Counted from the first letter of the stretch, positions 14,925-33,946 are shown. The stretch: 64,000 nt of DNA from Nanobdellati archaeon (GCA_016182015.1 JACOYC010000009.1:6953-70952), one strand, 5' to 3'. The notes: generated by a model not told the origin, from the letters alone. Program-made: numbers and translations.

Positions 14925-15680
14925 ATGCCAAACATGCACGCAGACCGCGGCCAAAGCCTTGCAGGCAGGGCAATCCTCTGCGAGCGGCATGGGGATTTCC
15001 AGCTGGCCAGAACATTGTACTTGGATGCGGCCAGCGCGTACGCGCGCGCAACAAAATCCGCTGGCTCAAAGGAACTGCAAACAAGCTATCAAAGGCTGAC
15101 AGACATTTACCTTGGCAAGGCAAGACAGCTTCGCGGCAGGCAGAGCAACCAGATAACCCTGCATGACAGCGATAACTTTGGCATAATACTGAGCGAAAAA
15201 AGCTCGCCAAACCCATTCAGGCTGACGTCAGAAATGCAATCAATAGCTGACCGGTGCATCGCCGGCAAAGGCAAAACCGACCTCGAAGGCCGGGCAAATG
15301 CAATTTTTAACTGGCTAAATGATAATATCAAATACGGCGGCAAGAAGCGCGGCAGAGTAGGCTACAGACGGGCCGACGAAGTTATCAAAACCGGCGAAGG
15401 CGTGTGCGGCGAGGATGCATACCCATACATAGTCATGCTGCGCTATGCTGGCCTTGAGGCGCGTTTTATGCTTGTTTACACAGACTGTTATGGTGCGGAT
15501 GTTTTTCATGCCTGCGCGCGCGTTTTAATGCCAAGGGAATTTTCATCGGACGTTGCGTACCATATGTATGATGTTGGGGCTGCTGCCGGCAGCGACCACC
15601 AAAGAATTAAAGTTCTTCCGGACGAAGAGGTTCTTCAAAACGAAGATGCTGTAAAAGTCTTCAGAAGCTGGCGCGGCTAA
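14925..15680 (+). CDS. MIT-like domain fused to transglutaminase-like cysteine protease
   Basis: The ORF track start is 14793. I prefer the ATG at 14925 (MPNMHADRG...), outside the divergent neighbour. The N-terminus GDFQLARTLYLDAASAYARATKS...LTDIYLGKARQLRG resembles the N-domains of the two AAA ATPases. The core GEGVCGEDAYPYIVMLRYAGLEARF ... FHACARV ... YHMYDVG fits the Cys-His-Asp transglutaminase fold. Confidence 0.6.
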   Translation: MPNMHADRGQSLAGRAILCERHGDFQLARTLYLDAASAYARATKSAGSKELQTSYQRLTDIYLGKARQLRGRQSNQITLHDSDNFGIILSEKSSPNPFRLTSEMQSIADRCIAGKGKTDLEGRANAIFNWLNDNIKYGGKKRGRVGYRRADEVIKTGEGVCGEDAYPYIVMLRYAGLEARFMLVYTDCYGADVFHACARVLMPREFSSDVAYHMYDVGAAAGSDHQRIKVLPDEEVLQNEDAVKVFRSWRG

Positions 15681-17812
15681 ACTGCCGGCGGGCGCTGTTC
15701 GGTCTCCTCGAGCTCAATGTCCGGTATTTTTACATCTTTCGGGCCATCATCCGCTGGCTTTTCCGCTGCTGTAACTTCCCTAACTTTCTTAACAACTTTT
15801 CCGGTTCCCTTCTTTATTTTTTCTGCTGCAAGCTGGCGATTTAGATCGGCTATTTGTTGCCCAGCTTCATTTAAACGCGCCGCAGAAGTTTCGGCCTCTC
15901 TTGCCATGATAGCCAGCCGTTCCTCTGCGTTTTTTGCCAGTGCATCTTTTCCAGCAATAATTTGTTTATACATATCATCTTTTTCTTCCAGCATGCTTTC
16001 AAGCATCTTGCGGATTTCTGATTCCGGCGAAGCTGCCAGGCGGGCTTCCAATTGCCTGTCTTTTTCACTCGCCGCCCTTAAATCCCCTTCCAGCCGCAAA
16101 ATATTTTCTCTTGCTGCAATTAACGCAGCAGCATTTTCCCTGCCGGCCTGTGCATCGCTTGCAAGCCTTTCAATATCCATCGCAAATCTGCTCATACCTG
16201 CGCCAAGCTCTGCATTCTCTGGCAGGCCAGCTCGATAGCTCTCTGGAAACATTTCATAAAACTCATTTAATGCGCTAAGCTTCCAGGCCGTAAGTTTTTT
16301 CTTAACCGCTGAATTCAATAAATCCCGCAGGCTGCCCGTTCCGTCGTTAAGATTGCTAATATCAACTGGCGAGCCGGAAAGCTCTGAAATATAAGCTACT
16401 ATCATGCTTCTAAGTTCTGCGCTGCTCTCGCGAATCGCTGCTATATCTTTTTCCTTGCCGCGCACAACTTCGTCGACAGACTTCACAGCCAATTTTAATA
16501 AATCGTCAACTTTCAGATTTTCCATCTTACCTTTAAATTCGGGCTTAACGCGCTCGACAAGCAGTCTCAAAACGTCTGGGATACCATATTTCGAACTGCT
16601 GTTTGCTAAAGCAGTTTTATTTATTTCCTCAAAGACGTAGCGTACTGCGGCCAGCGAATCCGCGCCCCATTTTGAATTATAAGCTGCAACAACATCCTTG
16701 CTCAAACCAAAATCACTAGCTATTTTTTCCAAATGACTGTGCAAGCCAGCCATAAATTTTGCGCGGGCCTGCATCCTTGCGGTATTTTTGCTTTGTATTT
16801 TTTCAAGTAAGTCAAGCGTGGCATCAATGGGGCGCTCATATTTGCTAATATCAGCGTCACTATCTTTTGTCCCCATCGCCTTGAGGATTTCAGTTTCTTT
16901 CTTGATAATCGGCTCCAACTGTTCTAGAAAAATCTCCTCCTGCCGCGAAAACGCCGTATAATGCTTGCCGAAGATTTTGAATAATATATAATATCTGTCT
17001 GTTTCTGGCAGAAGTTCAGGCACATCGCCCGTTTCTATATATATTCCGGAATCATTTACCCGTAATATCCTTTCCCGTCCATCATGTTTTTGCTTTATAA
17101 AAAAACCATTCTTTCCGAGCTCGACGTTTGTTACTATGTTAAGCAAATCTTCAAGCTCTAGATTTTTCTGCTGTGCCGCGGTTGCATCGCGAAACTGCTG
17201 CTCCATTTTTTCATAATTTGCAATTTCGGCGGCTAATTTATTATTTGCTATTTTTTGTTGTTCTTCTGACTCCAAAGCACTGGCCGCGCGCGACTCGGCC
17301 TGCGCCAGCCGTTGCTCTAGCTGTCCCCTTTCGCTGCCAAATCTTGAAGCCTGAATTGTAATCTCCTGCTCCATTGCGGCGGGCCCAAGCAAGTGCTCGG
17401 CAACAGTCCTAAATATGTAACACAAAGTCGCAAGATTGTATTCAAGCTTGCTACCTTCTTTTTTACTTGCTAAATCATAATTAAATAAAGAAAAACCATC
17501 ATCACCGCACTTTGCTAAAATAGAGAGTTTCTTGCCAGTCCAGTCAGTTGTGTGCACTAACAAACTACTTTTATTATAAATATCTACGCCGGAAATGTCA
17601 GAAATTTGCAGCCTAAATCCTTCCTCAGCTAGTACGAGGGCCTGTGATTTTTCAGACAGCTGGCGCGACAAACTTTCCTTCTCGGCCGTAAGACGCGCAT
17701 TTTCAGCCACTACTTTTGGCAGAATTTCCGGCAGTCCTAGCTGTGCTGGCCTGCCAGTCTCTGCATGCGGTTTAACTCCTACTCCATCCAAAGTTTTACT
17801 CGGGGGCGGCAT
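15677..17812 (-). CDS. long coiled-coil protein
   Basis: 711 aa of extended helical heptad regions interrupted by two small beta-rich modules. Its start overlaps the TPR gene stop by 17 nt. Confidence 0.55.
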   Translation of the reverse strand: MPPPSKTLDGVGVKPHAETGRPAQLGLPEILPKVVAENARLTAEKESLSRQLSEKSQALVLAEEGFRLQISDISGVDIYNKSSLLVHTTDWTGKKLSILAKCGDDGFSLFNYDLASKKEGSKLEYNLATLCYIFRTVAEHLLGPAAMEQEITIQASRFGSERGQLEQRLAQAESRAASALESEEQQKIANNKLAAEIANYEKMEQQFRDATAAQQKNLELEDLLNIVTNVELGKNGFFIKQKHDGRERILRVNDSGIYIETGDVPELLPETDRYYILFKIFGKHYTAFSRQEEIFLEQLEPIIKKETEILKAMGTKDSDADISKYERPIDATLDLLEKIQSKNTARMQARAKFMAGLHSHLEKIASDFGLSKDVVAAYNSKWGADSLAAVRYVFEEINKTALANSSSKYGIPDVLRLLVERVKPEFKGKMENLKVDDLLKLAVKSVDEVVRGKEKDIAAIRESSAELRSMIVAYISELSGSPVDISNLNDGTGSLRDLLNSAVKKKLTAWKLSALNEFYEMFPESYRAGLPENAELGAGMSRFAMDIERLASDAQAGRENAAALIAARENILRLEGDLRAASEKDRQLEARLAASPESEIRKMLESMLEEKDDMYKQIIAGKDALAKNAEERLAIMAREAETSAARLNEAGQQIADLNRQLAAEKIKKGTGKVVKKVREVTAAEKPADDGPKDVKIPDIELEETEQRPPAV

Positions 17813-20800
17813 TTTCCATCTCCATTATAACTGCGGCTGCATCTGCAGGCCTGTTAAGCTTGTCTAAGATTCTAACTTTAACCCTGCTGTAATAATCTTC
17901 CTGCGGCTCTAATTTAATCGCCCGACTAATATAATCTAAAGCGGTGTCAAGCTCTCCGGCAAGCTCGTGCACTTCTGCTAGCCCGCCAATAGCGCAGTCC
18001 GAATTCCTGTTTAGTTTAAGCACGCGCTCATACGCGCGTCTGGCATCAGCCGTTCTTTTAAGCGCCAATAAACAATTTCCTTTGTTAGTTAAAACTATTT
18101 CTAATGTTTGCTCATCTGGTTTAAGTTTTAAACAGCCACTATAATAATTAACAGCTTCCGCGTAATTTGCCAAATTTTCATTCGCCAAGCCGGCTAAAAA
18201 CCAAGTACGTATGTGCGTGATATTGCGCCGGCAGGCGTCCATTGCTATAACTGATGCGCTTCTAACATCGCCGCTTTTAAACAGGGAATTAGCTTTTCCA
18301 TAATTTGCATTATCATTGTTCGGATCAGTGGCAAGCACTGTATCATAACATGCAATCGCCCCAGCATAATCATCTGATTCTAACAGCAAATCCCCCCTGT
18401 GCAATGCTGCGTTAGTGTCGCCCTCTGCCATAAGTGTTTCTAATGTGGCTAAAACCGGCCCGATTTTTTTTGCCCTTTCTTCTGCATTTGCTTTTTTATT
18501 TAATATATCTCTAGTCTGACCGGAACATCGCATAGCTTCATCAAAGCAGCGTATAGCTTCTTCGAAATTGTTTGACAGCATCGCTTCGTCTCCTTTTTTA
18601 TTCCAGTCACGGCCGTCCATTTTCATACCAATATCCTTTTCCAGCTGCAGCGACTCTTTTGAACCGAGGCCTTTAGCCCGCGCGCATGCAGCCAAGGCAG
18701 TTTCCAAATCCCCGTTATCTCTTAGGGCGGTTGCATACTTGTAAAACGCGCCCGGGCCAGGCGAGAGCTCTGTGGCTTTTCTGTAAAACTCTATCCTATC
18801 TCTTGTAGCAGATATATCGCCGAGAAGAACGTACGCCAAACTTTTTAAACCAGTAGAAACGCGTGGCTGTGATATTATCTCTCTGGCCAGCTTCGCAGCA
18901 TTGTCATTGTCTTTTAGATTTATGTGCGCATCCAATAATAATCTGGCCACTTCATCCTCGTGGCGCTGCGGATATTGCGATAGAACATCTATAACTTCAT
19001 CGTGCCTCGAAAGATCGTGTAAAAGCTGGGCAAGCTTTTTCCGAAGTTCAGGCTCGCCCAACTTTAGAACTGCTGGTTTTTTAACTCTGCTGGCCTGTGT
19101 AGGTTCGGACTGCAAATTTTCTATTTTATGAAGCGCTACATACAAATCCTTAACTGCTATGGCCTTTGCATCTGCAGAATAATTGCCTACGCCAAGTACG
19201 GCCTGAGCGTGCATTATATGCACATCGGGATTACTGCGATCAAGATTTACAAGTGCATCTAAACTATCTAACGCTTTCTGATTTTGCCCGAGCTGTAGCG
19301 CTACCTCTGCGCATCCTTCCAACCACTCGCCGTTAACTTCTTTATTCTTAGATATTATGTACTCGTAAATAGAGTACGCCTTTTCCAGACTTTTCTTATC
19401 GCCGGCCTTCTGAAAAAGCCTTGCTCGTATAAAGCAAAGATTGTCTGGTAACTTTTTGCCTTCTTTTGTGGCGCGGTCTATTACTGCTGCGATCTCATCG
19501 TACCTCTTTAATCTACCAAGAATTGCAACTTCATTGGACAATGTATCTGTGGAATCATCGCGCGCTTTGGCCATTCGTATATAATACAATGCCCTATCTA
19601 GCTCACCAGCATTATGATGTGCGCTAGATAAATTATTAATAACCGCTACGTCTGTTTGCGGATTAAATCTCATAAAATATTCATAAAGTTCAATTGCCTG
19701 TCTGTGCTCGCCGCTGGCCAATCTAATATTACCAAGCTCTTTAAGCGCAAATAGATTGTCTGGCGCGTGTTGCAGAATAGTTTCCAAAGTATCTGCCACA
19801 CCTGGCGAGCCTAGCTCTTTTTGCGCCAATGCTTTGTAATGTAATGCAAAAACATCACCGCGATTAATTTTGAGTATGCTATCTGCGTGCGATATGACTT
19901 CTGGCAAAACAGACCTATCTCCGCTTCCAGATTTTTGCCAAAGCACACCTAACATCTGCCTGTGAGGCTCGGCAGCGTTGCTTGGACTCGCAGTTATAGT
20001 ATCAGTCAACATCGTCCTTGCCCCATCAAAATCCTTCCGCTGTCTTGCGCGTTCTGCATTGCGCAGTACTGCGGTCTCTTTTATTTTGTTTATTTCTTCA
20101 TTTTGCGGCTGAACTGCCAAAGCACGGTTACAATAATCAATAAGCTCGCCATCTTTACTTTTCAATCTGTTTAGCACATCACAAATAAGCAAAAGTGCAT
20201 CTATGTTATTATTATTAGTCAAAACCAGCTGCAGCTGCTCACAAGCACGCTCGTTTGCCCCCAAGTTATAATGGCATTTTGCCGCATTAATAAGAGACTC
20301 TAACTTATTAAAATTAAGATCTGCGGCCTTTTCGAAATGCATAGCTGCAGTTTGCAAATCTTTTTTGCCCAATTCTATCTGCCCCATGCTAAAGTGTACA
20401 TCGCCGCTTGCCTGTATCCTGAGTGCACTGACATAATCTTTTCTGGCAAGGCCTGTCTTTTTCATCGCCATGTGCACGTGGCCACGATACCTGAGGCCCT
20501 GTAAGTCCTGTGGATTTTCTTTCAGCCAAGAGTCCAAGGCATTAAGAGCTTTGCCAAAATTACTTTCGCGATAATAAGCCATACCAAGCAGCAGCTTGCT
20601 GTCTCTAAATGATTTTTTCAGCCGCTTTAAGTGCGAAATTGTCTCATAAAACCAATCTATTTCAAATGCTATTCTGCCAAGCTCGTAAATGCACCTTTCG
20701 TTTTTCGGGGCAAGCCTGCTCGCCTTTAAAACAACCTTATATGCGCCATCAAAGTATGCTTTGTTTCCATTTGCTATTAGCAGATCGGCCACATCCATTA

Positions 20801-22283
20801 GTGCGTTTAGAGTTGGCCCGTCTGCTTCTATTCTGCCCAGCAGCGGCTTAAGATTTATGTTTGGATCTGCCAAAGCTTTTTCTAAAATTTCCTTCAAACT
20901 AAAATATTCGCGCTCCCACTTGCGTTTCAATGAATTCGCAGATACTGCGCACCGCCATGAATTAACGCTGTTGGCAAGGCGCGCCAGGCCTGTGCTTTTT
21001 CCTGCCAACGATTTTAGAATTATGCTTTTTTCTTCCAGAATTATTTTGGATTGTTTTACTCTCAAAAAAGAATTACACACGCCTAACGCTCGTCCAAAAT
21101 CTCCGTACGAGCACAGGAACTTTTCAAAATTTACCACGGCATATTCGTTAGTTGGATCGCTTTTAATCAAGTTTTCATAAAAAGTGCTTGCTTTGTCGTA
21201 GTCGCCCAGAAGGGCGCAAAGACTGGCTGTGTTTTGCAACCGGCGCAAGTCTGTTAGCTTGTCAGCACTGGCCGTATTGGGATCATAAAGGACCTCTTTA
21301 ATCTTTGTGTTTAAGTCATAATGCAAATTATAAATTTCAACATTCGGGCGCAAAAAAAAATCCAAGCCAAATTCAACGCCATTTAATCTTAAATATTCCA
21401 GAAGTTCATCTATAACCATGAGCTCTTTCAGCTCACCTAGTGTCGTAACACGTCGGATTAAAATCCGGCTGTTAGGATTGTTGAGCATAGCAATCAAAAC
21501 TGCTTCTGTTCTTTCTTCAATTGGCCCCTTTTCCAGTGGCCTGGCAGATTCTACACGGACATTATAAGACGAGTGGCGCGACACGTCCCGGTATATGTTA
21601 GGCATTGCATACGCCAAATATGCTGTTACATGACTAAGCGGTTCGCGAGTTAGCAAATTTTGTAACTGGTCTTGACTTGTAATATGTTGAACAAAAAAAT
21701 CTAAAACACATAAACGTTTTAGCAAGCCAAGATTATCTATATTTTTGCCTGCCAAAAAATTTGTCAGTGTGTTCTTCGGCGTGTTTGACACTAAGGCATT
21801 TAGTAGTGCGGCATACTCTGGTGATACGTCCACACCAAGTTCATAAGCAATTGAGTTTCTTATGCTGCTAAAATCAAAACTCACACTGCCAGTTGCTAAT
21901 ACAGAAACAATCTTTAAAACTCCGCGTAAAGTATCTTGAATTTCTAACTTAACACGCTCAGCTTTATCTGGCGCCGCTTCATCTCTCGGCAGCCCGCGCC
22001 TAATTACATCTTCTAAGCCGGCAATAGAATCGCGTTTGACCTGCGGGCCTGCTATTGGTACGTGCATTTGCGGCCTGCTTGCCATATCCAGAATTTTATC
22101 CTTTAGTGTTTGCGGCTGCGCGTCAGTTTTAGCATCCTCTGGTGCCTGTTCTCTCCCAGCTACTATGCGCATAACTTTATCTCTTACTGGATCAACCGCA
22201 GCTGCCGCGGGCGGCGGAGCGGGCTGTGCTTCCTGCCCATGCCGTCTCAAAATTTCATGTACTCTATCGCGTGCACTTGCCAT
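17796..22283 (-). CDS. giant TPR-repeat protein (1495 aa)
   Basis: After a ~370-aa unassigned N-terminal region there are dozens of 34-aa TPR-like units (e.g. GDYDKASTFYENLIKSDPTNEYAVVNF, GKALNALDSWLKENPQDLQGLRYRG). Its start codon abuts the E1-like gene stop. Confidence 0.7.
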   Translation of the reverse strand: MASARDRVHEILRRHGQEAQPAPPPAAAAVDPVRDKVMRIVAGREQAPEDAKTDAQPQTLKDKILDMASRPQMHVPIAGPQVKRDSIAGLEDVIRRGLPRDEAAPDKAERVKLEIQDTLRGVLKIVSVLATGSVSFDFSSIRNSIAYELGVDVSPEYAALLNALVSNTPKNTLTNFLAGKNIDNLGLLKRLCVLDFFVQHITSQDQLQNLLTREPLSHVTAYLAYAMPNIYRDVSRHSSYNVRVESARPLEKGPIEERTEAVLIAMLNNPNSRILIRRVTTLGELKELMVIDELLEYLRLNGVEFGLDFFLRPNVEIYNLHYDLNTKIKEVLYDPNTASADKLTDLRRLQNTASLCALLGDYDKASTFYENLIKSDPTNEYAVVNFEKFLCSYGDFGRALGVCNSFLRVKQSKIILEEKSIILKSLAGKSTGLARLANSVNSWRCAVSANSLKRKWEREYFSLKEILEKALADPNINLKPLLGRIEADGPTLNALMDVADLLIANGNKAYFDGAYKVVLKASRLAPKNERCIYELGRIAFEIDWFYETISHLKRLKKSFRDSKLLLGMAYYRESNFGKALNALDSWLKENPQDLQGLRYRGHVHMAMKKTGLARKDYVSALRIQASGDVHFSMGQIELGKKDLQTAAMHFEKAADLNFNKLESLINAAKCHYNLGANERACEQLQLVLTNNNNIDALLLICDVLNRLKSKDGELIDYCNRALAVQPQNEEINKIKETAVLRNAERARQRKDFDGARTMLTDTITASPSNAAEPHRQMLGVLWQKSGSGDRSVLPEVISHADSILKINRGDVFALHYKALAQKELGSPGVADTLETILQHAPDNLFALKELGNIRLASGEHRQAIELYEYFMRFNPQTDVAVINNLSSAHHNAGELDRALYYIRMAKARDDSTDTLSNEVAILGRLKRYDEIAAVIDRATKEGKKLPDNLCFIRARLFQKAGDKKSLEKAYSIYEYIISKNKEVNGEWLEGCAEVALQLGQNQKALDSLDALVNLDRSNPDVHIMHAQAVLGVGNYSADAKAIAVKDLYVALHKIENLQSEPTQASRVKKPAVLKLGEPELRKKLAQLLHDLSRHDEVIDVLSQYPQRHEDEVARLLLDAHINLKDNDNAAKLAREIISQPRVSTGLKSLAYVLLGDISATRDRIEFYRKATELSPGPGAFYKYATALRDNGDLETALAACARAKGLGSKESLQLEKDIGMKMDGRDWNKKGDEAMLSNNFEEAIRCFDEAMRCSGQTRDILNKKANAEERAKKIGPVLATLETLMAEGDTNAALHRGDLLLESDDYAGAIACYDTVLATDPNNDNANYGKANSLFKSGDVRSASVIAMDACRRNITHIRTWFLAGLANENLANYAEAVNYYSGCLKLKPDEQTLEIVLTNKGNCLLALKRTADARRAYERVLKLNRNSDCAIGGLAEVHELAGELDTALDYISRAIKLEPQEDYYSRVKVRILDKLNRPADAAAVIMEMENAAPE

Positions 22284-23846
22284 TCATACACCTAATACGC
22301 ATTTTGAAGTATAACAATTTTCGACGCCAGAAGCATCTGTGCCGGAGATTTGCAGTCTCCTCCTCGCTGACAGGTTATACATCAAGTAACCGGCAGGGAG
22401 TTTTGATGGATTTGTAAACACGTGCATGGCCTCTGCTACTGCCAGCCCGCCAACTACTAAGTTTGGCATTATGACACTTGGGTCAGCAGAGTAAGCACAC
22501 CCCTCTCTAGCTGCACGATTCGTTTTGCGGCGCTCTTCTGCCGCCTTTCTCTCGTCACTAATCATTTCTTTTAAATCAGTCCACGGACCCCATCGCTGAT
22601 AACGAATGCACTTTGTCCTGCCGGGATACGCAAAATATATTTCTCCCCCCCTAACGCCGGCAGATGCATCTATTATTGGCACATTCAATCCCGACATTAA
22701 AACTAAATTATTAATGTGAATCCTTGCTTCTACGCTGTCCACGCCAGATATTATTAAATCGGGCGAAATTTCTTTCAGCCATTTAGTAAAATTTTCGTCG
22801 ATGTAACCTATAACAAAACCAACATCGCGTCCAGTTATCTGACTTAATCTATTTGAAAGTGCTGACGCTTTCTTCTTGCCAATTGCGCCGTATGCCAATA
22901 TTTGTCTGTTTAAATTTGTGGGTTCAAAATTATCGCCGTCCGCTATTATAACTCTTGCACCGGTTAAACAAGACCACAATGATGTGTAATTGCCAATTGC
23001 GCCGCCGCCAATTATTAAAATGGTTTTGTTATAAAACAGACTATTTGCAGATTGCTTTGGCCCATCTAAACTAACACGTTTGCTGGATAGAGAATCATAA
23101 TCGATTGCTAACACCGGCCGTCCATCTGTTTCCATTGGCATAATTATGCTGCGCAATTCGCCGATGGCTATGCCTGCCGCTATGCCGCTGGTGGCATTGC
23201 CCTGCGGCAAATCTTCATAAATGCCTGGCATTATATCTGCTTCGTTTACATGTACCCATGCACTGTTAATAAGAGCTCTAATACGCTCTTCTAAAATCAT
23301 GGCTGGCCCGCTTTTCGCCTGCCGCCCGAATATTCTTACCGAACATTTAGTGGCGCTTGACATTGTGCTTATAAACGGAACATTTTGTTTTCTGCACCAT
23401 TCATAAGAATAAAATTTAGAAGTATAATTGTTTGTTGCATCTATAACTGTTGTTGGCATTCCAAAATTACTTGCAGCGTCTCTTCCAAGCGGCGCATCAA
23501 TGCCGCTAACCTGTATGTTCGGGTTAATCTGACGTAGCGATGCAGTCAACGCTTTAATTTTACTCTCGCCCTTGCGGGCTTCAAAAAGCAAAAATCCTTC
23601 GGATGCACTATCCAGATTGCGGCCGCCGTTCACATTTCCAGAACCAATTATCCTTACATGACCTACGCCGAGTGCCGCGCAGCCTGCCGAAACGCAGTTC
23701 GAAAGCTGGCCAGAACCCACCACAACAACTTTCGCGCTGTCAATCTTTCCTTGCATCCAGCCCTCAATCCGCCTCTGTCTGTCGTATACATCTGCTACTT
23801 CGTGCTCATCTTGTTCCTCTTGTCTTATTGGTATAACGCCCATCAT
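22284..23846 (-). CDS. E1-like (ThiF/MoeB family) enzyme with two tandem Rossmann-type domains
   Basis: 520 aa. The N-terminal domain is degenerate (VVVVGSGQLSNCVSAGCAALGVGHVRIIG). The second domain is canonical (ILIIGGGAIGNYTS...VIIADGDNFEPTNLNRQIL...ISGVDSVEARIHINN...). Confidence 0.7.
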   Translation of the reverse strand: MMGVIPIRQEEQDEHEVADVYDRQRRIEGWMQGKIDSAKVVVVGSGQLSNCVSAGCAALGVGHVRIIGSGNVNGGRNLDSASEGFLLFEARKGESKIKALTASLRQINPNIQVSGIDAPLGRDAASNFGMPTTVIDATNNYTSKFYSYEWCRKQNVPFISTMSSATKCSVRIFGRQAKSGPAMILEERIRALINSAWVHVNEADIMPGIYEDLPQGNATSGIAAGIAIGELRSIIMPMETDGRPVLAIDYDSLSSKRVSLDGPKQSANSLFYNKTILIIGGGAIGNYTSLWSCLTGARVIIADGDNFEPTNLNRQILAYGAIGKKKASALSNRLSQITGRDVGFVIGYIDENFTKWLKEISPDLIISGVDSVEARIHINNLVLMSGLNVPIIDASAGVRGGEIYFAYPGRTKCIRYQRWGPWTDLKEMISDERKAAEERRKTNRAAREGCAYSADPSVIMPNLVVGGLAVAEAMHVFTNPSKLPAGYLMYNLSARRRLQISGTDASGVENCYTSKCVLGV

Positions 23847-23861
23847 TTATGCACCACTATA

Positions 23862-24854
23862 TCATATATCTTTAATATCTAAATGATAACGCCCATCATC
23901 ACCCATTTTACCTGATTTGGGCGTTCCATCGTACGCGACTATAGCTTTAGCTTTGGCATCCCGTACTGCCTTAATCTCGGTCTGCGCAGCTCGTTGTAAG
24001 CCACTAACATTTTCACGTATTATTCTAATTAAATCATCCTCGGTAAAGGAAATGTCATTTTTTACGTGTGCTTGCTCAAATTGTATAATGTTATTTTCCA
24101 CCGCGCTTGTATCAATTTCAAATGTCGGCTTGCGCGGCGCGTAAACTATTTTTGCATGATAGTTACCCTTAAGATCAAGAACCAAACTCAAAGCAAACCC
24201 AAACTCCCTTAGCCTATCATATAAAAGATCAAATTCTGGCAATCTGTCTTCCAGGCCAGCTGCATCAAGTCTACAGCCGGGCAACCATATTTTAATTTCA
24301 CGCTTGCCGGGCGTTTCAGATATATTTAGAAGAACACCTTGCTCTGAATTTTCAGCTTGTATTTTAACCGGCAAGCTAAGCAAACGAATATCATCATGCG
24401 CATACAAAAAATTATGCGCAGCAATTTGCGGAAAAACTATTAAATTAAGATTAGTATCATCAGTATCTGAATGCTCGCAGCTAAAGTATGGATGGGTATG
24501 CCATGCACCCATTATTCTGTATGATTCTTTATGCACTTTAACGCCAGCTGCAAAATCATCGGCAGAACGTATGAAATTTTTTCCAGCTACCTGCCTCGTC
24601 AAACAAACATCGTGTATTGTAAAATCATCAACATCTTTTGAACCTAATAAAAGCCCGCCAACTTCTGATCCTTCGCCCAACTCCTCTTTTGTTATTTTAT
24701 GCGCAAGCTCGCCCAGCCGGTGCGCCTTTTCCCATGCTTTCTGCGTCATGACAAAGGTCTGCGGAATGCAAATCGGGTCCTGACGCTCGGTGCCGCGAAA
24801 CTTGCGATTAAGTTGCGCTTCAAAAGCCCTCTGCGACTTATTTTTTTCTGCCAT
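23862..24854 (-). CDS. JAB/MPN+ (JAMM) metallopeptidase with unassigned C-terminal domain
   Basis: 330 aa. The conserved Glu lies in SEVGGLLLGS, and the full JAMM motif is GAWHTHPYFSCEHSDTDD (HxH-x7-S-xx-D). Confidence 0.75.
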   Translation of the reverse strand: MAEKNKSQRAFEAQLNRKFRGTERQDPICIPQTFVMTQKAWEKAHRLGELAHKITKEELGEGSEVGGLLLGSKDVDDFTIHDVCLTRQVAGKNFIRSADDFAAGVKVHKESYRIMGAWHTHPYFSCEHSDTDDTNLNLIVFPQIAAHNFLYAHDDIRLLSLPVKIQAENSEQGVLLNISETPGKREIKIWLPGCRLDAAGLEDRLPEFDLLYDRLREFGFALSLVLDLKGNYHAKIVYAPRKPTFEIDTSAVENNIIQFEQAHVKNDISFTEDDLIRIIRENVSGLQRAAQTEIKAVRDAKAKAIVAYDGTPKSGKMGDDGRYHLDIKDI

Positions 24855-26287
24855 TATATTATCAAACCATTCCTGCGTGCTTCTTCTTCTAACATTTCCT
24901 GGCCAGCAAAATCAATTCTTCTGTGCCCATGGCCAGTTCCCTGCGAGTAAACCACAACGGGATATAGCTTTCTCGCTAAAATGTCCCGAATGCCCTTTTC
25001 TAAACCAGTTTTAACAAAATAATTCAGCGCGTCTTCCTCGTTTTTGAAGCCCTTTCCAGCCAGCTGATAGTGCCTAAACTCCAAAACGCAGAGGCCATCA
25101 TAAAAAATACTATGTTTTGATATGCTGTCAAATGCCTGATGGTTCGATAATCTTTGGATTACGCAGAGCGGTTTTAACACTATCCTGCCGCTTTCATGCG
25201 CCAGCGGGATGGCAGGCCGCATAGGTTTCATTTCATAAAAAACACCCGGAATTGTTATGAAGCCACCATCCTCTATTCTATCTGTAGCTTGAACCGCACA
25301 GCGTGGCGTAGAAACAAAAATATAATATTTTATGTTGCCTATGATATTTTTTTCCTGAACATGGATGCCATATTTTGTTTCTGGTATTACGTAGCTTTTT
25401 CCGTCCGCTTCTTCTACTGGATTTTTGAATACCTTTTGAAATACATTTTCTTCATATTTGTTTAACTTTAAAATTTTAGCATTAAGCTCCTTATCTTCTG
25501 CAAGCGAATTTGCGGCATACTTCATTTTAAGCGCCATCTGTATGTGCTCTTCTAAACTATCCGTTGTTTTGCTCGATATTTTCGGCACGTACCTACATCC
25601 GCTGATGCAAATATAATTCTGGCCTTCTGTGGGATTTTGAAAAACCAGTCTGTAAACCAAACCCTGCGTTAATAATAATCTACTATCCTGCAGCGCCCGA
25701 CGAAATGCGATCCGGCCGGCGCCAATAAATTCAGATAAATTTGAAAACTGCCCATCAAACATATCTCTCAGATATGCAATGCGCTCATCGCCAGAAAGCA
25801 CTTTTTCTTCTCTCTCTGCTGCTGGATCTAGAACGGCTGGCTTTTCTTCCCCAGCCACTTTTTTAATCCCAAGTATATCAAACACGCGCCCTTTTGCACT
25901 TCTAACAGAATCATCCTTTTCGCGCGTCAGGTATGGTATTAGTTCTTTAACCAGGTATCTTAAAACAGGATCTGCCTGCAGCTCTGGCGGGTCTGGCGCG
26001 ATTGGCTTAGCCAAAGGTATGCCTGCCAAAACACTGCTAATTAATTTTTGTTTCCATGCCGCTATGCTTGGCGCATTATCATCTTCATAAATTTGCTCCA
26101 GCGTTTCCAGGCTTTCTCCCGGAACTACGGTATAGTGCCTTCCAAAAAGTCTTGCAAAATTGCCTTTTGGTATTGTTTCACTCCCGATATGAAAAATCTG
26201 TCCGTCGCAAATAATAGCAGTTCTACTTGCCAAACTTTTTATTTGCGTTTGCGGCAGTAATTCTAATAAAAGCTCTTGGAGCTGCAT
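24854..26287 (-). CDS. hypothetical protein with possible UBC/E2-like C-terminal region
   Basis: 477 aa. Residues ~339-376, EDGGFITIPGVFYEMKPMRPAIPLAHESGRIVLKPLCVIQ, resemble the UBC core spacing (GG.F..I.F...YP.KPP...F...I.HPN...G.ICL). It shares a 1-nt stop/start overlap with the JAB gene. The E2 assignment is a pattern match by eye only. Confidence 0.35.
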   Translation of the reverse strand: MQLQELLLELLPQTQIKSLASRTAIICDGQIFHIGSETIPKGNFARLFGRHYTVVPGESLETLEQIYEDDNAPSIAAWKQKLISSVLAGIPLAKPIAPDPPELQADPVLRYLVKELIPYLTREKDDSVRSAKGRVFDILGIKKVAGEEKPAVLDPAAEREEKVLSGDERIAYLRDMFDGQFSNLSEFIGAGRIAFRRALQDSRLLLTQGLVYRLVFQNPTEGQNYICISGCRYVPKISSKTTDSLEEHIQMALKMKYAANSLAEDKELNAKILKLNKYEENVFQKVFKNPVEEADGKSYVIPETKYGIHVQEKNIIGNIKYYIFVSTPRCAVQATDRIEDGGFITIPGVFYEMKPMRPAIPLAHESGRIVLKPLCVIQRLSNHQAFDSISKHSIFYDGLCVLEFRHYQLAGKGFKNEEDALNYFVKTGLEKGIRDILARKLYPVVVYSQGTGHGHRRIDFAGQEMLEEEARRNGLII

Positions 26288-26322
26288 CGTGCCTCGTTTT
26301 ATGATATAGTTATAATATAAAT

Positions 26323-26790
26323 TTATACGCGATATGCTCCCTGAATAGTGCCTTCCACAATTTGCAGGTCATACACGATAACTTTTTTCTCTGGATCTTC
26401 TTTTACCCTGCCCAACTTACCTATCTGCTGGACATCTATTTTTTTTGTTGGCATTGGCCTGCCTGTTGCCCGATCTATTTGGCAGGGCGCCTTATTATTA
26501 TTAATATCCATGTGTATTCCCTTTGGCTTCTGCGCCAGCAGGCCTATGTCGCTCAAAACTTTTGCTTCCTCTGGAGACTGACCCGCACCAGTATACAGGA
26601 GCGTAGAGAGAGAATCCAAAGTCAAACCATGCCGCATTTCTATTGGGATTTCGCGAACTATAACATCTCCGCCTAATGCCGTGCTTAGGCTGCCGATCCA
26701 CGGCAACTGGTATACTTCTTCTTCAGACATTTTCCTTTTTTCTTCGCTCTGCGAGAAATCAAATAACGCTTCTATGCTATCCACACCCAT
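26323..26790 (-). CDS. hypothetical 155-aa protein (positional candidate for the modifier of the E1/JAB module)
   Basis: ORF 35 nt upstream of the 477-aa gene. It ends ...VIVYDLQIVEGTIQGAYRV with no GG terminus and no recognisable ubiquitin motif. Confidence 0.4.
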   Translation of the reverse strand: MGVDSIEALFDFSQSEEKRKMSEEEVYQLPWIGSLSTALGGDVIVREIPIEMRHGLTLDSLSTLLYTGAGQSPEEAKVLSDIGLLAQKPKGIHMDINNNKAPCQIDRATGRPMPTKKIDVQQIGKLGRVKEDPEKKVIVYDLQIVEGTIQGAYRV

Positions 26791-26836: not shown

Positions 26837-28606
26837 TTACTGGGTGCGCCCGTAAACAATCTCTGCAACCCTTGCGCACGATTGGCTGGTTAAAACTGCC
26901 GTACAGAATCTGGCTTCTTTAAGCATCCCTGCCCGCAAGAACGCATTCAGCTTGTTAAGCCAAATTATTTTGTTTTTTGGTTCAATCTCCAAAGCTTTTG
27001 AGTAAAAATTTTGCGCTTCACTAAATTTTTTCTGTGCTACACAAACATCTCCAAGGGCAACATACGTATTTAAATCTACCTTACCAGAAAATAAAATAGA
27101 TTCTAGATGCTGTCTTGCACCATCAAGCTCGCCAACCATAATCTCGGCCATGGCAGTATTATATGCAACTAAATCATTATGCGGTTTTATTCCGCGCAGC
27201 AAGTCAAGCGCTTTGCTGTGCTGTCCAAAACTATAAAGTAAAACTGCTTTATTATTAGCTGCCTCTGTAAAACTTGGTTCTTTTACTATGGCTTTATCAT
27301 AACACATTAATGCATCATCCTTAGCGCCAATAGCATCAAATGTAGCACCAAGGTTGTTCCAGCCGACGGCGCTATTTTCATCAAGGCGTAAAAGCTTTTT
27401 GTACCAGCCTACAGCTTGTTGAAAGTTGCCTTTTCGGTATGCTACATTCCCAAGCTTCAGATACAGCTCCGGTAAAAGCTGGCCTGCCCGGCTTTCATAC
27501 TGTACAACTTTTTTCTCTATTTCTGGAAGCTCTGGCGATGCTATTCTCTTCAGCCCTTGCTCGGCGAGCAGCCTATTTAAAACAGAAACTAAATCATGTA
27601 TTGACTGATTTAGGTCCTGGCCTGCCTGAGGCACCACTATAGACTGTGGCCCCGGCTGCTTGGCCAGCAACAGCTCCCTATCTTTAAGCTCTATCTCTTT
27701 TTCGAGCACAGCAATTTTTTCTTTGTATTCTTGTACCATTACAGCAGCTTCGCGTTCAGTCCTTTCTAAGGCCAGCAACTGATCCTCGCGCCTTTCGCGC
27801 AGGTGTATTTCGCTCCGCTCTTTTTCTTCCTCTAATTCTAGATGCTGTTCTGCTCTTCTTTGTTCAAGCCACGTTTCAACTCTGGCGCGTTCTGCAGTTA
27901 GAAGTGCTTCCTGCATGCCTGCGCGCATTTCCAAAACTTTCTTTTTTTGCTCTAGTAAAATGAACTGCGCAGTTAGGTCCTTATGTGCAGCATCAAATTC
28001 CTGATCCCGCGCTTTTTGATGCAACTCGCTCAAAGCCATTTCTAATTTTTTATCAAGATAATTACCGCTCCAATCACACACAATATCACTTGCCTCAAGA
28101 CCGTATTCAGCCAGCTTCAAGTCTCTTTTAACGCACGCGTAAAAATCCCCGCGCCGGTTTAAACAAACATCATCAGCAGTAAACTCACTGGCGACGCTCA
28201 CAGCAGCTTCAGAAAGTCTGGGTGATAAAATTTCCTCCAGATCACTTTTCATAACTCCTGATTTGCCTTCAGTTGCAAACAAATTAACAAGCGCATGCGC
28301 AAGCTTGCCTGCGGCCAATTCATTTCTAATGATATATTTGAGTGTCAGGTCGCCTTCGAGTTTGTGGCCATCCTTTGTTGTCACGCCTAATTTAAAATGC
28401 AATAAGACTGGCCCATTATCCACAACAATATAATCCTGGTCGCCGAACCAGCGCCGTTTCCCGGGCTGTTCGCCTTTAAATAAATCTGCCAGATTTTCCG
28501 CTGGCATGCAGTAATCTTCTCCCGGCGCGTTGTCTCTGTGAAATATTCCGCGCTGTTGCGTCACCTTTCTTGCAACCTCATCCTCACTTTTTTTCCAGGG
28601 TTTCAT
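26837..28606 (-). CDS. SPFH/band-7-like N-domain, charged coiled coil, C-terminal TPR repeats
   Basis: 589 aa. The N-terminus DYIVVDNGPVLLHFKLGVTTKDGHKLEGDLTLKYIIRN looks SPFH-like by eye. The central region is an EQRRAEQHLELEEEKERSEIHLRERRED coil. The C-terminus has TPR units (GNFQQAVGWYKKLLRLDENSAVGWNNLG...). Confidence 0.45.
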   Translation of the reverse strand: MKPWKKSEDEVARKVTQQRGIFHRDNAPGEDYCMPAENLADLFKGEQPGKRRWFGDQDYIVVDNGPVLLHFKLGVTTKDGHKLEGDLTLKYIIRNELAAGKLAHALVNLFATEGKSGVMKSDLEEILSPRLSEAAVSVASEFTADDVCLNRRGDFYACVKRDLKLAEYGLEASDIVCDWSGNYLDKKLEMALSELHQKARDQEFDAAHKDLTAQFILLEQKKKVLEMRAGMQEALLTAERARVETWLEQRRAEQHLELEEEKERSEIHLRERREDQLLALERTEREAAVMVQEYKEKIAVLEKEIELKDRELLLAKQPGPQSIVVPQAGQDLNQSIHDLVSVLNRLLAEQGLKRIASPELPEIEKKVVQYESRAGQLLPELYLKLGNVAYRKGNFQQAVGWYKKLLRLDENSAVGWNNLGATFDAIGAKDDALMCYDKAIVKEPSFTEAANNKAVLLYSFGQHSKALDLLRGIKPHNDLVAYNTAMAEIMVGELDGARQHLESILFSGKVDLNTYVALGDVCVAQKKFSEAQNFYSKALEIEPKNKIIWLNKLNAFLRAGMLKEARFCTAVLTSQSCARVAEIVYGRTQ

Positions 28607-30055: not shown

Positions 30056-31345
30056 TTATTCGCTCGGCAATTCCCCGCCCGAGGACTTGCCTTCTATTTT
30101 AACCGGCGGCCTGGCCATGTCGCTTTTGTATCTTTCAATCATGTCAAGCAAATCCTTAAATTCATCTCTTTCGCCGCTTCTTTCTATCTGCTGTTCCGCG
30201 AGCGTGAACCACGGGCCAAGCGTTGATGGCTTTTGCGAAATTGCCTGCTGGAAATCCGCGAGCGTTACCTGCCTTGCCTGCCCGCCCGAGCTCAGCGCCT
30301 CTCTGAATGGAATATCTGCAGCTAATTTCACAACTTCAGCAATATCTGCCGCAGAATACCACTCTGTCATGCCTGCAAGCGCAATATAATTTACTGAAGT
30401 TTCAACTGGCCGCGAGCTGCACTCTTTCTCAAAAATTGCTGTGCGCATTTCCAGGTCTGGCGGCGAAACCAAAACGTGCTTGCTAAACCTTCCGCTTCTT
30501 CTTAGCGCAGGGGCGATCTCCCATGGCTTGTTTGTAGAAGCTAAAATCAGGGATTTTTCCGGCCGTTCCTGCAGGCCATCCATCTGGGCAAGCAGTGTGT
30601 TGACTGCCTTGACTCTTTTTTTGTTGGCCAGCGAGTCAAACTCATCAAAATACATAATCGACGGTGAATTTTCCCTCGCAAATTCAAATGCTGTCACTAT
30701 GTTGCGCTCTGTCTCGCCCTCGCCGCTTTTCAATAAATTGTACGGCATGACAAACAGAAATGTTGCATTGCCCTCGCCTGCTGCTGCCTTTGCAACAAAA
30801 GTCTTTCCGCAGCCTGGCGGGCCGTAGAGCAGGACGGCTTCTGAAGTCTGCTTTCCGTAAGCCTGATAAAGTTCCGGGCGCGTGAATGGATAAACCAAAA
30901 CCTCATTTATGATTTGCTTAACTACTGGCATGCCAACAACATCATCAAGCTTGACATTTGGCCTTTCAATTAAAAGGAAATCTGGAACATCTTCTTTCTT
31001 TTCATCTATTGTTGGTTTTTCCGGCGCGATTTTCTTTGGGTCCGGCGGCGGAACTGGCTTTGAAGGCGCAACCGGAATTGCTGGCACTGGCTGGGGCGGC
31101 GGTGGAATTACACTTTTTCCAACACCGGGCGCATACCTTTTTGCTATTTCGAGGCATTGCTGGCCTCGCTTGAGATGATCCCTGCTCTCACGATTCTGCT
31201 GAATCCTTGATGCCTGAACATAAAGGTCTGCAGCTTCCAGGTAGCATCTGCGGGCTTCAGAAAAATCCCGCGAACGTTCGTGCTTCATGGCCGATGTATA
31301 CAAACCGTCCGCCCTTCCTACTAGTTCTTCAAGTTTCTGTGACAT
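30056..31345 (-). CDS. MIT-AAA+ ATPase, Vps4/CdvC-like, paralog with degenerate pore loop
   Basis: 429 aa. The N-terminal three-helix segment is FSEARRCYLEAADLYVQASRI...CLEIAKRY, followed by a Pro-rich linker. Walker A is LLYGPPGCGKT and Walker B is IMYFDEFDSL. The SRH is TNKPWEIAPALRRSGRFSK. The pore-loop position reads LLKSGEGETE and lacks an aromatic residue. Confidence 0.75.
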   Translation of the reverse strand: MSQKLEELVGRADGLYTSAMKHERSRDFSEARRCYLEAADLYVQASRIQQNRESRDHLKRGQQCLEIAKRYAPGVGKSVIPPPPQPVPAIPVAPSKPVPPPDPKKIAPEKPTIDEKKEDVPDFLLIERPNVKLDDVVGMPVVKQIINEVLVYPFTRPELYQAYGKQTSEAVLLYGPPGCGKTFVAKAAAGEGNATFLFVMPYNLLKSGEGETERNIVTAFEFARENSPSIMYFDEFDSLANKKRVKAVNTLLAQMDGLQERPEKSLILASTNKPWEIAPALRRSGRFSKHVLVSPPDLEMRTAIFEKECSSRPVETSVNYIALAGMTEWYSAADIAEVVKLAADIPFREALSSGGQARQVTLADFQQAISQKPSTLGPWFTLAEQQIERSGERDEFKDLLDMIERYKSDMARPPVKIEGKSSGGELPSE

Positions 31346-31346
31346 T

Positions 31347-32579
31347 TTAGTTTTTTGGCAAATATCTTCTTATTAGATTTACTAAATCCGGATACTCTGA
31401 TGCTTCGCCGCTCCTTTCAATTTCGTTTTTTGCCTTAACAAGCCAAGGCACTAATGATTTTTTTGTCTGCGAAAGAGCTGTTTGAAAATCTCTAATAACT
31501 ACCGGCCTTTCTGACTTGCCTTCCAAAGACACTTCTTTTGCGATAATTTGCTTTGCACTTTTAGCGATATCAACGATATCCGCACTGGTGTAGCCTTCGG
31601 TATTCTGCGCCAGCCAGTCGTAATCTGCAGGATGAAGACTTACAAGTTCTGCCGTTGTATTTAACTGAAAAATTTTCTTTCTGGCGGGAGCATCTGGCAA
31701 GGGAACAAACACAGTTCTGTCAAGCCTGCCAGGCCTTCGGACTGCGGGATCAACTGCCCATGGCCTGTTTGTAGTTGCCATCCAAAATACCGGCTTCGCT
31801 GCATCTTTGCTTGAAAAGCCATCCATGCTGGACAGTATTTGATTCACGAGCCTTGCTGTATGTGATGCGTCTGCTGAGTCTCTGGAAACACCAAGCGCGT
31901 CAATCTCATCTAAGAATATTATGCTCGGCGCGTTTTTTATTGCGTCTTCAGTCATTCTTGAAAAATGCTGCTCCGACTCACCGACATATTTACTCAAAAT
32001 ATCGCTTATCTTTACGTTATAAAAATTTGCCTTGCACTGGCCTGCTGCTGCCCTGCCGATAAATGTTTTTCCGCAGCCTGGCGGGCCGTAAAGCAAAATG
32101 CCGCCGCCGGGTTTCAAGCCCAGCCGTTGGTAAAGCTGCGGCGACATCATCGGCTGTATTATACTAAGGCGTATCTCTTCTTTGACATCATCAAGGCCAG
32201 CCACCTGTTCAAAAGTCATGTCTGACTTCTCGGGCTTGATTTCAAATGTTTCTTCCAGAGAACTAGAATCGCCTCCACCACCCTGTCTGACTTGAATGCG
32301 CGGTGGTGGCTGCGGGGCGAGGGCTCTGCCTTTTTCCACGTACAACCTTGCTAAATTTTCCCAGCTTTTTCTGTCGGCTTCTGAGCTGGTTAGCCTTGCA
32401 GCATTAGCATACTCTTCTGCAGCTCTTAGATAAAGTTGCCGCGAACGTTCAAAGCCATATTGTGCGCGGCTAGTGTCAGCTGGCAAGAGAGACTTAGCCT
32501 CCTCCTCGAGTCTGCGTGCTTCATTAGAGTAGCCAAGCCCTCTGGCTGCTGTAACCCTGGGTTCATTGCCAGCTGACAT
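31347..32579 (-). CDS. MIT-AAA+ ATPase, Vps4/CdvC-like, paralog with canonical pore loop
   Basis: 410 aa. The N-terminus is FERSRQLYLRAAEEYANAARL...LARLYVEKGRAL. Walker A is LLYGPPGCGKT and Walker B is IIFLDEIDAL. The pore loop is SKYVGESE. The SRH is TNRPWAVDPAVRRPGRLDR. There is a 1-nt gap to the paralog downstream. Confidence 0.75.
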   Translation of the reverse strand: MSAGNEPRVTAARGLGYSNEARRLEEEAKSLLPADTSRAQYGFERSRQLYLRAAEEYANAARLTSSEADRKSWENLARLYVEKGRALAPQPPPRIQVRQGGGGDSSSLEETFEIKPEKSDMTFEQVAGLDDVKEEIRLSIIQPMMSPQLYQRLGLKPGGGILLYGPPGCGKTFIGRAAAGQCKANFYNVKISDILSKYVGESEQHFSRMTEDAIKNAPSIIFLDEIDALGVSRDSADASHTARLVNQILSSMDGFSSKDAAKPVFWMATTNRPWAVDPAVRRPGRLDRTVFVPLPDAPARKKIFQLNTTAELVSLHPADYDWLAQNTEGYTSADIVDIAKSAKQIIAKEVSLEGKSERPVVIRDFQTALSQTKKSLVPWLVKAKNEIERSGEASEYPDLVNLIRRYLPKN

Positions 32580-32588
32580 AGTTTGTAT

Positions 32589-33197
32589 TTACCTAGCACC
32601 TTGATTGCCTTCGTCCCTTTGCCTCTCTTTCGCAATCTCCTGTTCCACAGAAGTTACGCCCACAGTTTCCTGTGCGATTTCTGCTGAGGCCTGTGCCTTT
32701 AATCTTGCAACAAGGTCTTCTGTTGGCTCAGACTGGCCAATGTTTGAGAGGCCTTCAAGTGCAACCTCTACCTGCTGGCCACTGGTCTCTAAATCTCTCA
32801 GTGCTTGCTCTGCATCACCAAGCAGCGCATCTATGTTTCCTGTTTTGGCTTTTAGTTTTCCTGATACTTTTACTACACCTTTCATCGTGCCGAGCAAACC
32901 AACATATTGTTCGGCAAGGTCTACTAAACCAACAACATTTTGAGAATATTGTCTTATGTTGCCAGCTGCAAGTTCCATTCTGCCTGCACGGTCATACATA
33001 TTGGCGTGCATTGCTTCGGCCTTTTCACCAGCATTTGTTCTAACTGCTTCCTTAAATGCCTCATACGCTTTTTGTTTACTTCGCTTTGCTCCCAAAGCTG
33101 ACTTGTCGGCCTCTCGCTGCGCCCTGACCAGAGTTTGCTTCAACTGGTATGGCGTCTCGCTTCTAAATAAACCCTTTAACGTTTCTCCTAATGTCAT
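32589..33197 (-). CDS. ESCRT-III (Snf7/CHMP/CdvB)-like protein
   Basis: 202 aa and all-helical. The N-terminus ETLKGLFRSETPYQLKQTLVRAQREADKSALGAKRSKQKAYEAFKEAVRTNAGEKAEAM follows the CHMP pattern. The first half is basic and the C-terminus is acidic, with a TEDLVARLKAQ helix. It lies 9 nt upstream of the AAA gene. Confidence 0.6.
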   Translation of the reverse strand: MTLGETLKGLFRSETPYQLKQTLVRAQREADKSALGAKRSKQKAYEAFKEAVRTNAGEKAEAMHANMYDRAGRMELAAGNIRQYSQNVVGLVDLAEQYVGLLGTMKGVVKVSGKLKAKTGNIDALLGDAEQALRDLETSGQQVEVALEGLSNIGQSEPTEDLVARLKAQASAEIAQETVGVTSVEQEIAKERQRDEGNQGAR

Positions 33198-33207
33198 TTT
33201 TTCACCC

Positions 33208-33942: not shown

Positions 33943-33946
33943 TTTA

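Follow-up and report, generated by a model that had tools for sequence, protein, structure and literature searches.

A predicted ubiquitin-like conjugation module with an inactive-plus-active E1-like enzyme, centred on DPANN archaea

A four-gene module and its distribution

Within a 64,000-nucleotide stretch of DNA from a Nanobdellati archaeon (GCA_016182015.1 JACOYC010000009.1:6953-70952; in its whole length referred to as the window), four open reading frames (ORFs) of 155, 477, 330 and 520 amino acids (aa) were found head-to-tail on the minus strand. Together they very probably form a module for the activation and processing of a ubiquitin-like protein (Ubl), consisting of a predicted modifier precursor, a candidate E2-like carrier, a JAMM peptidase (JAB) and an E1-like enzyme that combines an inactive and an active adenylation domain. 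To our knowledge, this combination of domains, long held to be a eukaryotic hallmark, had in prokaryotes been shown only for the bacterial Bil defence systems. The module is a real and apparently undescribed variant of this known kind of system and apparently works like Bil, with the same E1 logic recurring in a separate, far more widespread and DPANN-centred family whose modifier and probable carrier are unknown to databases. An incomplete search of the literature, which found work on the Bil, Bub, CBASS, SAMP and Caldiarchaeum systems, returned no account of this family, and the 2006 survey of Iyer et al. did not list it. The four genes are given below, S155 and X477 being our own labels for the 155-aa and 477-aa protein families.

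26323..26790, minus strand: S155 (155 aa), predicted ubiquitin-like modifier precursor; family in 46 loci, usually directly upstream of the X477 gene
24854..26287, minus strand: X477 (477 aa), candidate E2-like carrier; family in 76 related loci, at the E2 position of Bil operons
23862..24854, minus strand: 330-aa JAMM/MPN+ metallopeptidase, predicted to process and deconjugate the modifier; matched by Prok-JAB and PADLOC JAB models
22284..23846, minus strand: 520-aa E1-like enzyme with tandem ThiF domains; matched in Pfam, NCBIfam and a phmmer search of the PDB

These positions and sizes agree with those in an earlier note on this DNA, as do the spacings between the genes. Specifically, the stop codon of the X477 gene overlaps the start codon of the JAB gene by 1 nt (..ATA TAATG GCA..), a gap of 15 nt separates the JAB and E1 genes, and the E1 gene abuts a gene for a 1495-aa TPR protein with a gap of 0 nt. 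The module lies inside a long series of minus-strand genes that extends over ~3.1-35 kb of the window. Because housekeeping genes (LeuRS, HisRS, PolX and primase) flank the cluster, this region is regarded as chromosomal, and the same genes ruled out an origin of the module from a mobile element or virus.

The module recurs in at least 80 other genomes. Its distribution was examined in a one-genome-per-species collection, in which tblastn confirmed E1 relatives in 166 stretches and returned 80 loci, mostly from Woese-, Pace-, Nano- and Aenigmatarchaeota; other hosts were Desulfobacterota, Patescibacteria, Chloroflexi, Fraserbacteria and Acetothermia. A jackhmmer run over all ORFs of 89 sources, comprising ~85 distinct related loci, recovered the E1 in 88, JAB in 77, the X477 family in 76 and the S155 family in 46 of them, and at least 13 further loci had a small GG-tailed ORF adjoining the module that jackhmmer had missed. 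The genes were nearly always co-stranded, most commonly in the order S155-X477-JAB-E1, and since the four families share a strand in most of these distinct loci, the arrangement is non-random. The earlier note had named a lack of synteny elsewhere as a ground for refutation, and it is the opposite that was found. A DPANN group archaeon metagenome-assembled genome (MAG) encodes a 'hypothetical protein' identical to X477, and only two other close homologues were present among 5.8 billion proteins, an exhaustive profile search raising the number to 13. Both close relatives lie in a series of genes for proteins of 455, 603 (TPR), 157, 461, 332 (JAB), 497 (ThiF), 1546 (TPR) and then 565-712 aa, and the wider contexts of E1 homologues comprised a small ORF, a 370-560-aa ORF, a JAB gene and a tandem ThiF gene.

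The Desulfobacterota loci (L007 9001-14217, L008 9001-14286 and related ones) had a different, fixed gene order: an 89-aa ORF, the E1, a Ubl ending in PQEGG plus three residues, a 372-aa Cys protein, an unknown protein of ~155 aa, a ClpX-like AAA ATPase and a 266-aa JAB. Because this order recurs over many Desulfobacterales and Syntrophobacterales records, vertical inheritance is suggested. Three module copies were seen in individual small DPANN genomes, namely L013/L035/L060 in a Woesearchaeota MAG, L021/L027/L033 in a Nanoarchaeia MAG and L029/L031/L067 in one further MAG.

The E1-like enzyme and the JAMM peptidase

Judged by its sequence matches, the 520-aa protein is a member of the ThiF/MoeB/E1 adenylation superfamily. 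Pfam PF00899 matched it in two stretches (E=4.7e-40), NCBIfam ThiF/MoeB models matched residues 31-176 and 271-398 with scores that were all far under the family cut-offs, and phmmer against the PDB aligned residues 21-176 with MoeB residues 12-167 and residues 256-415 with ThiF. The domains and the predicted catalytic cysteine were placed as follows.

23112..23792, minus strand: inactive adenylation domain (residues ~19-245), aligning with MoeB 12-167 and without the DxD and NLxRQ motifs
22347..23054, minus strand: active adenylation domain (residues ~265-500), all adenylation motifs kept
22497..22499, minus strand: codon of Cys450, predicted catalytic cysteine of the E1, at the crossover-loop end

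In the N-terminal domain, GSG... and ...DSASE stood where MoeB has its DxD and NLQRQ motifs, and the Gly loop was degenerate, with most of it lost. In the C-terminal domain, G280xGxxG285, D303, D305, N311-L-N-R-Q315, K326, D370 and R375 were each present in 81 of the 81 full-length homologues on which all E1 conservation counts are based. This inactive-then-active layout is common to the 81 homologues, which are widespread and 410-550 aa in length, and it identifies the enzyme by its motifs as an inactive plus an active adenylation domain in one chain, upholding the earlier reading of a tandem ThiF protein with a degenerate N-terminal and a canonical C-terminal half. Cys450 was conserved in 80/81, within a motif (S/G)CxYxxDPSV directly ahead of a conserved helix, and its separation from C413 amounted to ~35 residues in the window E1 and ~20 in most homologues.

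In NAE1-UBA3, as in the homodimeric MoeB and ThiF, the ATP site is completed by an Arg that the partner subunit contributes from its N-terminal region. The inactive domain of the window E1 kept an RxDRQ motif (R23 in 76/81 and Q24 in 75/81), and its retention in this domain only would fit a role as the Arg donor that completes the ATP site. The earlier note had further called the enzyme a eukaryote-like pseudo-dimer; the layout it described stands, and the uniqueness that it implied falls, since BilD already has such an architecture of an inactive and an active adenylation domain (10.1101/2023.09.26.559546). As a side observation, most members of the E1 family carried a CxxC after a Gly-rich strand and a CxC close to the C-terminus, together resembling a structural zinc site of the ThiF/MoeB type. 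In the window clade only C413 plus C511/C516 were present (residues 413 and 511-516), so that this site may be altered there.

The 330-aa protein was matched by Prok-JAB (E=7e-7, above the cut-off of the model) and by the PADLOC JAB (Cap3-type) models (1.7e-8), and its motifs identify it as a JAMM/MPN+ metallopeptidase with an intact E...HxH...S..D zinc site, as had been noted before. The catalytic residues were invariant among three close homologues and conserved across the JAB family.

24459..24665, minus strand: JAMM catalytic residues E64, H119-x-H121, S129 and D132, each kept in 72-74 of 74 family members

Very large JAB genes (944-1033 aa) were seen at L005 5077-8025, L019 5125-7977, L031 2508-5342 and L052 10129-13230, in whose proteins the JAMM domain made up the first ~150 residues only, the remainder being unannotated or coiled coil.

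Candidates for the modifier and the carrier

The earlier note had recognised no ubiquitin-like gene and had regarded the 155-aa ORF as a merely positional candidate ending in TIQGAYRV rather than GG. That ending was read correctly, and the rest gives way to family comparison. Gly151 was the sole invariant column of a 35-sequence alignment of the S155 family, and most members carry QxGG and a short tail. GG occurred at this position in 38 of the 42 distinct S155 sequences listed, within a pattern ...Y..leIeVsavQ(Q/E)GG followed by 0-11 variable residues.

26338..26340, minus strand: codon of Gly151, predicted C-terminus of the mature modifier, aligning with the terminal Gly of Q(Q/E)GG
26326-26337, minus strand: tail AYRV following Gly151, predicted to be removed

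Endings in the family included QQGG-YLATFSRNYH and QEGG-LEYKI (the hyphen marking the predicted C-terminus) and the tail-less RPQEGG, and two S155-type ORFs stopped exactly at GG. In the window clade the endings were TIQG-AYRV, TIQG-AYRTGTPWYV and PKVG-YVKIPD. In BilA, the conserved Gly is followed by as many as nine residues, whose removal by the JAB peptidase BilC was demonstrated experimentally (10.1101/2023.09.26.559546; PMC11601596). Because S155 shares this pattern of an invariant Gly and a short tail, it is predicted to be a modifier precursor with a JAB-trimmed tail. It would presumably adopt a beta-grasp fold, of which a weak ThiS-like match of one family member (E=0.014) was the sole hint; the window S155 matched nothing in Pfam, NCBIfam or the PDB.

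For the 477-aa gene, the earlier suggestion of a possible E2 holds up in that X477 is the best E2 candidate in the module. The site then proposed was displaced. A UBC-like pair of H364 and C375 (HESGRIVLKPLC375) had been suggested, of which C375 occurred in 4/76 family members and H364 was unconserved, and the segment EDGG...PLCVIQ that had been taken for the end of the protein covers residues ~339-378 of 477. The conserved pair, H383 and C400, lies ~25 residues downstream, in a family motif with the following position.

25088..25141, minus strand: family motif YxHPF-x(~13)-(I/L)CxG, here H383-Q-A-F...G-L-C400, predicted thioester site
26024..26251, minus strand: X477 repeat 1 (residues ~13-88), homologous to repeat 2
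25487..25714, minus strand: X477 repeat 2 (residues ~192-267), homologous to repeat 1

C400 was kept in 75/76 family members and was the only invariant residue of X477, while H383 was present in 66/76 and P384 in 64/76, with F or A at 385; the spacing from H to C was mostly 13-14 residues. The motif resembles the UBC pattern, in which HPN precedes the Cys by ~10 residues; in X477, HPF precedes it by 13-14, with Phe in place of Asn. The two N-terminal repeats, of ~75 residues each, were aligned by hhalign with a probability of 96.4% (E=1e-9), and the rest of the protein comprises a helical linker, a coiled coil and a C-terminal Cys domain. An E2 role for X477 is suggested by its invariant Cys, by the HPx motif and by the fixed place of the gene between the Ubl and JAB genes; on balance we lean towards its being a thioester carrier, presumably with a UBC-like fold. 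Two X477 paralogues surrounding one E1 were seen at L004 (4370-6043 and 9664-11340), L016 (4024-7010) and L067 (3119-4390 and 10277-11557), and such pairs may represent alternative carriers or specificity factors.

Proposed pathway, alternatives and neighbouring genes

The analysis above shows how the genes are arranged, which domains they encode, which motifs are conserved and that the loci are syntenic. From this we infer each chemical step of a pathway that follows the plan of BilABCD, as well as its link to AAA+ ATPases, and as a whole we hold this mechanism to be fairly probable. S155 would be made as a precursor from which the JAMM peptidase trims AYRV, exposing Gly151. The E1 would act as an intramolecular pseudo-dimer in which the degenerate N-terminal ThiF domain replaces the second subunit of ThiF or MoeB, and its C-terminal domain would bind ATP/Mg and adenylate Gly151. 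Cys450, at the end of the crossover loop, would then accept the modifier as a thioester, after which the modifier would move to Cys400 of X477 as the E2-like carrier and from there onto target amines. The two N-terminal repeats of X477 probably serve in target selection or assembly, and the JAMM peptidase would additionally take the tag off. The tagged proteins would probably be handled by AAA+ ATPases, namely by an upstream MIT-AAA pair in the window and by PAN-like (OB-AAA) or ClpX-like ATPases elsewhere.

This last step is suggested by the association of the module with AAA+ genes, which points to tagged proteins being handed to an unfoldase. When same-strand genes within 7 kb of the module were clustered, a ClpX-like ATPase was found at 23 loci and a Cdc48/PAN/Vps4-like ATPase at 11 loci, the MIT-AAA pair of the window included. 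Many of the AAA+ genes are located within the module or share 4 nt with the modifier gene, and of the adjacent ATPases examined, two (L004 and L010) carry a proteasomal-ATPase OB domain.

30056..32579, minus strand: two tandem AAA+ ATPases (429 and 410 aa), Vps4/CdvC-like, possible partner unfoldases, 3.3-4.6 kb upstream of the module

The two ATPases of the window are co-directional with the module and matched Pfam AAA at 1e-30 and 2e-39. They have MIT-like N-terminal helices, with MIT (E=0.001) and NCBIfam CdvC (5e-57) matches that were both under cut-off.

Several observations weigh against the proposed pathway. For X477, Pfam gave no UQ_con, Prok-E2 or related match at E<=1 among 62 members, the very profiles that the earlier note had put forward as a check, and no E2 match came from phmmer and profiles against the PDB, from NCBIfam or from PADLOC. 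Alignment of the X477 family by hhalign gave a probability of 0.2% against E. aridi BilB, a single-sequence comparison of low power, and of 0.3% against five UBC sequences; the path of the latter alignment was colinear, with HPF opposite HPN and Cys opposite Cys. The AlphaFold2 model of X477, from a 3-sequence alignment, had a predicted local distance difference test (pLDDT) score of 34.9 and was too low to read a fold. Within residues ~288-477, the part considered for a UBC fold, its low-confidence secondary structure placed strands at 291-371 and then helices at 417-472, an order that is compatible with the UBC layout of an N-terminal helix and a four-stranded meander ahead of the Cys loop and C-terminal helices, and proves nothing. 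For S155, xG stands in place of GG at the C-terminus predicted for the window clade, comparisons by hhalign with Ub, NEDD8, ThiS, MoaD, SAMP1/2 and BilA gave probabilities of at most 1.9% each, profile searches of Pfam and the PDB with the family gave no significant beta-grasp match, and the AlphaFold2 model from a 2-sequence alignment (pLDDT 35.7) was likewise too low to read a fold. The E1 has no large Cys domain, Cys450 ending a short crossover loop of 20-35 aa, and no E2-recruiting ubiquitin-fold domain was evident in it. Furthermore, about a third to about 40% of loci, not all, had an AAA+ gene in or close to the module, and two other genes separate the AAA+ pair of the window from the module. 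Finally, SAMP conjugation in archaea proceeds without an E2, so that there is no logical need for one here.

Comparison with BilABCD showed four genes in the same order (Ubl, gene at the E2 position, JAB/JAMM peptidase and E1), the same inactive-plus-active E1 layout and no E3 gene, as well as a Ubl, here a predicted one, whose conserved Gly is followed by a tail, here of 0-11 aa and here only predicted to be removed. In contrast, the Bil E1 has a mobile alpha-helical CYS domain of ~80 aa in its crossover loop, which the window E1 lacks, a further point against the proposed pathway, whereas the inactive domain of the window E1 is still detected as ThiF by standard hidden Markov models. X477 is two to three times larger than its Bil counterpart and bears an N-terminal repeat duplication, no similarity to BilB was detected in it, and the hosts are mainly DPANN archaea, with AAA+ genes often present. 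Membership of the E1 in the BilD family found no support, hhalign having aligned only the generic active domain with BilD (probability 9.6%). As the E1 CYS domain was lacking, and neither homology to BilB nor E1 kinship with BilD beyond the generic active domain was detected, the module was not filed as Bil. Nor is it assigned to SAMP/UbaA, to Cap2/Cap3, whose models gave matches to generic domains only, or to the Bub systems, which are distinguished by fusion proteins and a DUF6527 protease (PMC11601596).

With the eukaryotic UBA1/UBA6, NAE1-UBA3 and SAE1-UBA2, the window E1 shares a pseudo-dimer with the inactive domain first and a catalytic Cys by the crossover loop; unlike them, it has no FCCH/SCCH and C-terminal ubiquitin-fold domains and is half their size or less, and the Ube1 model TIGR01408 scored 21 bits against a cut-off of 750. 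The archaeal SAMP/UbaA/HvJAMM1 and Caldiarchaeum systems resemble the module in having an archaeal Ubl, a ThiF-type E1 and processing or removal by a JAMM protein. UbaA acts as a homodimer and requires no E2, and SAMPs terminate in GG with no tail behind it; UbaA is single-domain and the window E1 two-domain, and the NCBIfam SAMP-E1 model NF047750, whose cut-off is 450 bits, gave the latter only 52. In Caldiarchaeum, Ub, UBC and RING proteins can be recognised as such, whereas the components of the present module cannot. Rpn11 of Caldiarchaeum is described as processing the Ub precursor (PMC6043591). A small, C-terminally activated tag encoded beside an OB-AAA or other AAA+ unfoldase gene is also reminiscent of Pup-Mpa/ARC and ubiquitin-Rpt/Cdc48, although Pup is attached by a glutamine-synthetase-like ligase instead of an E1, and the tag-ATPase link would here follow from gene neighbourhood.

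As an alternative to the proposed pathway, tagging might be E2-independent, with the E1 transferring S155 directly in a UbaA/SAMP-like manner and X477 acting as substrate, adaptor or regulator, its Cys serving for metal binding, redox sensing or attachment. X477 indeed matches no E2 family by any profile method, the E1 Cys lies in a short crossover loop as in MoeB/UbaA/UBA5-type enzymes, and X477, with its two repeat domains and coiled coil, resembles a scaffold. However, an invariant Cys after HPF, in a gene locked between modifier and JAB over ~76 loci, is carrier-like, and the paralogue pairs of L004, L016 and L067 look more like sets of alternative E2s or specificity factors than like one substrate; we consider direct transfer unlikely. 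Far less probable still is that S155 is a sulfur carrier of the ThiS/MoaD/QbsE type or a precursor peptide, with JAB trimming the tail, the C-terminus being adenylated, thiocarboxylated or otherwise modified for a cofactor or natural product, and X477 acting as a sulfur relay. Pairs of a ThiF-type enzyme and a JAB do work in this way in QbsCDE and CysO/Mec+ (PMC1779556), for both halves of the E1 the top matches in the PDB and NCBIfam were to ThiF/MoeB, and one S155-family member has the weak ThiS-like match. Nevertheless, no rhodanese, cysteine desulfurase, ThiG/MoaE/CysM-type or biosynthetic gene recurs in the window cluster and the ~85 loci, where the recurrent neighbours are AAA+ unfoldase-type ATPases. 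Moreover, the NCBIfam ThiF/MoeB scores all remain far under cut-off, and the inactive-plus-active E1 layout is so far known solely from conjugation systems (10.1101/2023.09.26.559546; PMC11601596).

A further alternative concerns the biological role only and leaves the mechanism as proposed: in an anti-virus defence of the Bil type, the same chemistry would tag virion or mobile-element proteins instead of host proteins for AAA+ handling. Both Bil and Cap2/Cap3 serve in defence (10.1101/2023.09.26.559546; PMC11601596), the JAB and E1 of the window weakly match the CBASS Cap3/Cap2 models of PADLOC, and the module is spread patchily over unrelated phyla with up to three copies in some genomes. 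However, no complete PADLOC defence system was matched, the window region is chromosomal amid LeuRS, HisRS, PolX and primase, and many of the Desulfobacterota records retrieved carry the module with a fixed operon structure, which is more housekeeping-like. A defence role is thus rather doubtful, if somewhat less so than transfer without an E2. The analysis supports the conjugation and deconjugation module that the earlier note had envisaged.

A broader and more tentative reading, which we rank above these alternatives yet below an even chance, is that the module represents an undescribed widespread Ubl pathway, with a new thioester-carrier fold or a highly diverged UBC, feeding operon-encoded AAA+ unfoldases (PAN-like OB-AAA, ClpX-like and MIT-AAA). 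If true, prokaryotes would have in it a counterpart of ubiquitin-to-proteasome/segregase targeting, with an E1 of inactive plus active adenylation domains at its centre. If confirmed, the module would stand as a third major lineage among complete ubiquitin-like systems of prokaryotes, give a function to hundreds of 'hypothetical' DPANN genes and offer a tractable test of tag-to-unfoldase coupling outside eukaryotes, actinobacteria and haloarchaea.

Further genes of the window adjoin the module or its AAA+ pair.

15677..22283, minus strand: 1495-aa TPR protein and 711-aa protein, downstream neighbours; same genes after the E1 in L001 and L002
26837..29988, minus strand: 589-aa and 452-aa proteins immediately upstream, clade-specific conserved neighbours; same place in L002

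The 1495-aa all-TPR gene begins with the base that immediately follows the E1 stop, and the unannotated 711-aa ORF overlaps its end; because both are absent from the other ~80 loci, they are regarded as a clade-specific operon extension. The 589-aa protein (26837-28606, minus strand) weakly matches SPFH/Band_7 over residues 57-174 (0.028) and also contains a long coiled coil and, at its C-terminal end, TPRs (Pfam 9e-20); its counterparts adjoin the module in L002 (603 aa) and L001 (partial). Just upstream of the AAA+ pair, ORFs of 202, 244 and 381 aa (32589-35092) had no Pfam match and could be ESCRT-III-like partners. Large proteins with Ig-like domains (FixG_C, He_PIG, NPCBM_assoc and Big_9) flank the cluster at 3160-10932 and 39244-41325 (minus strand) and are probably surface proteins.

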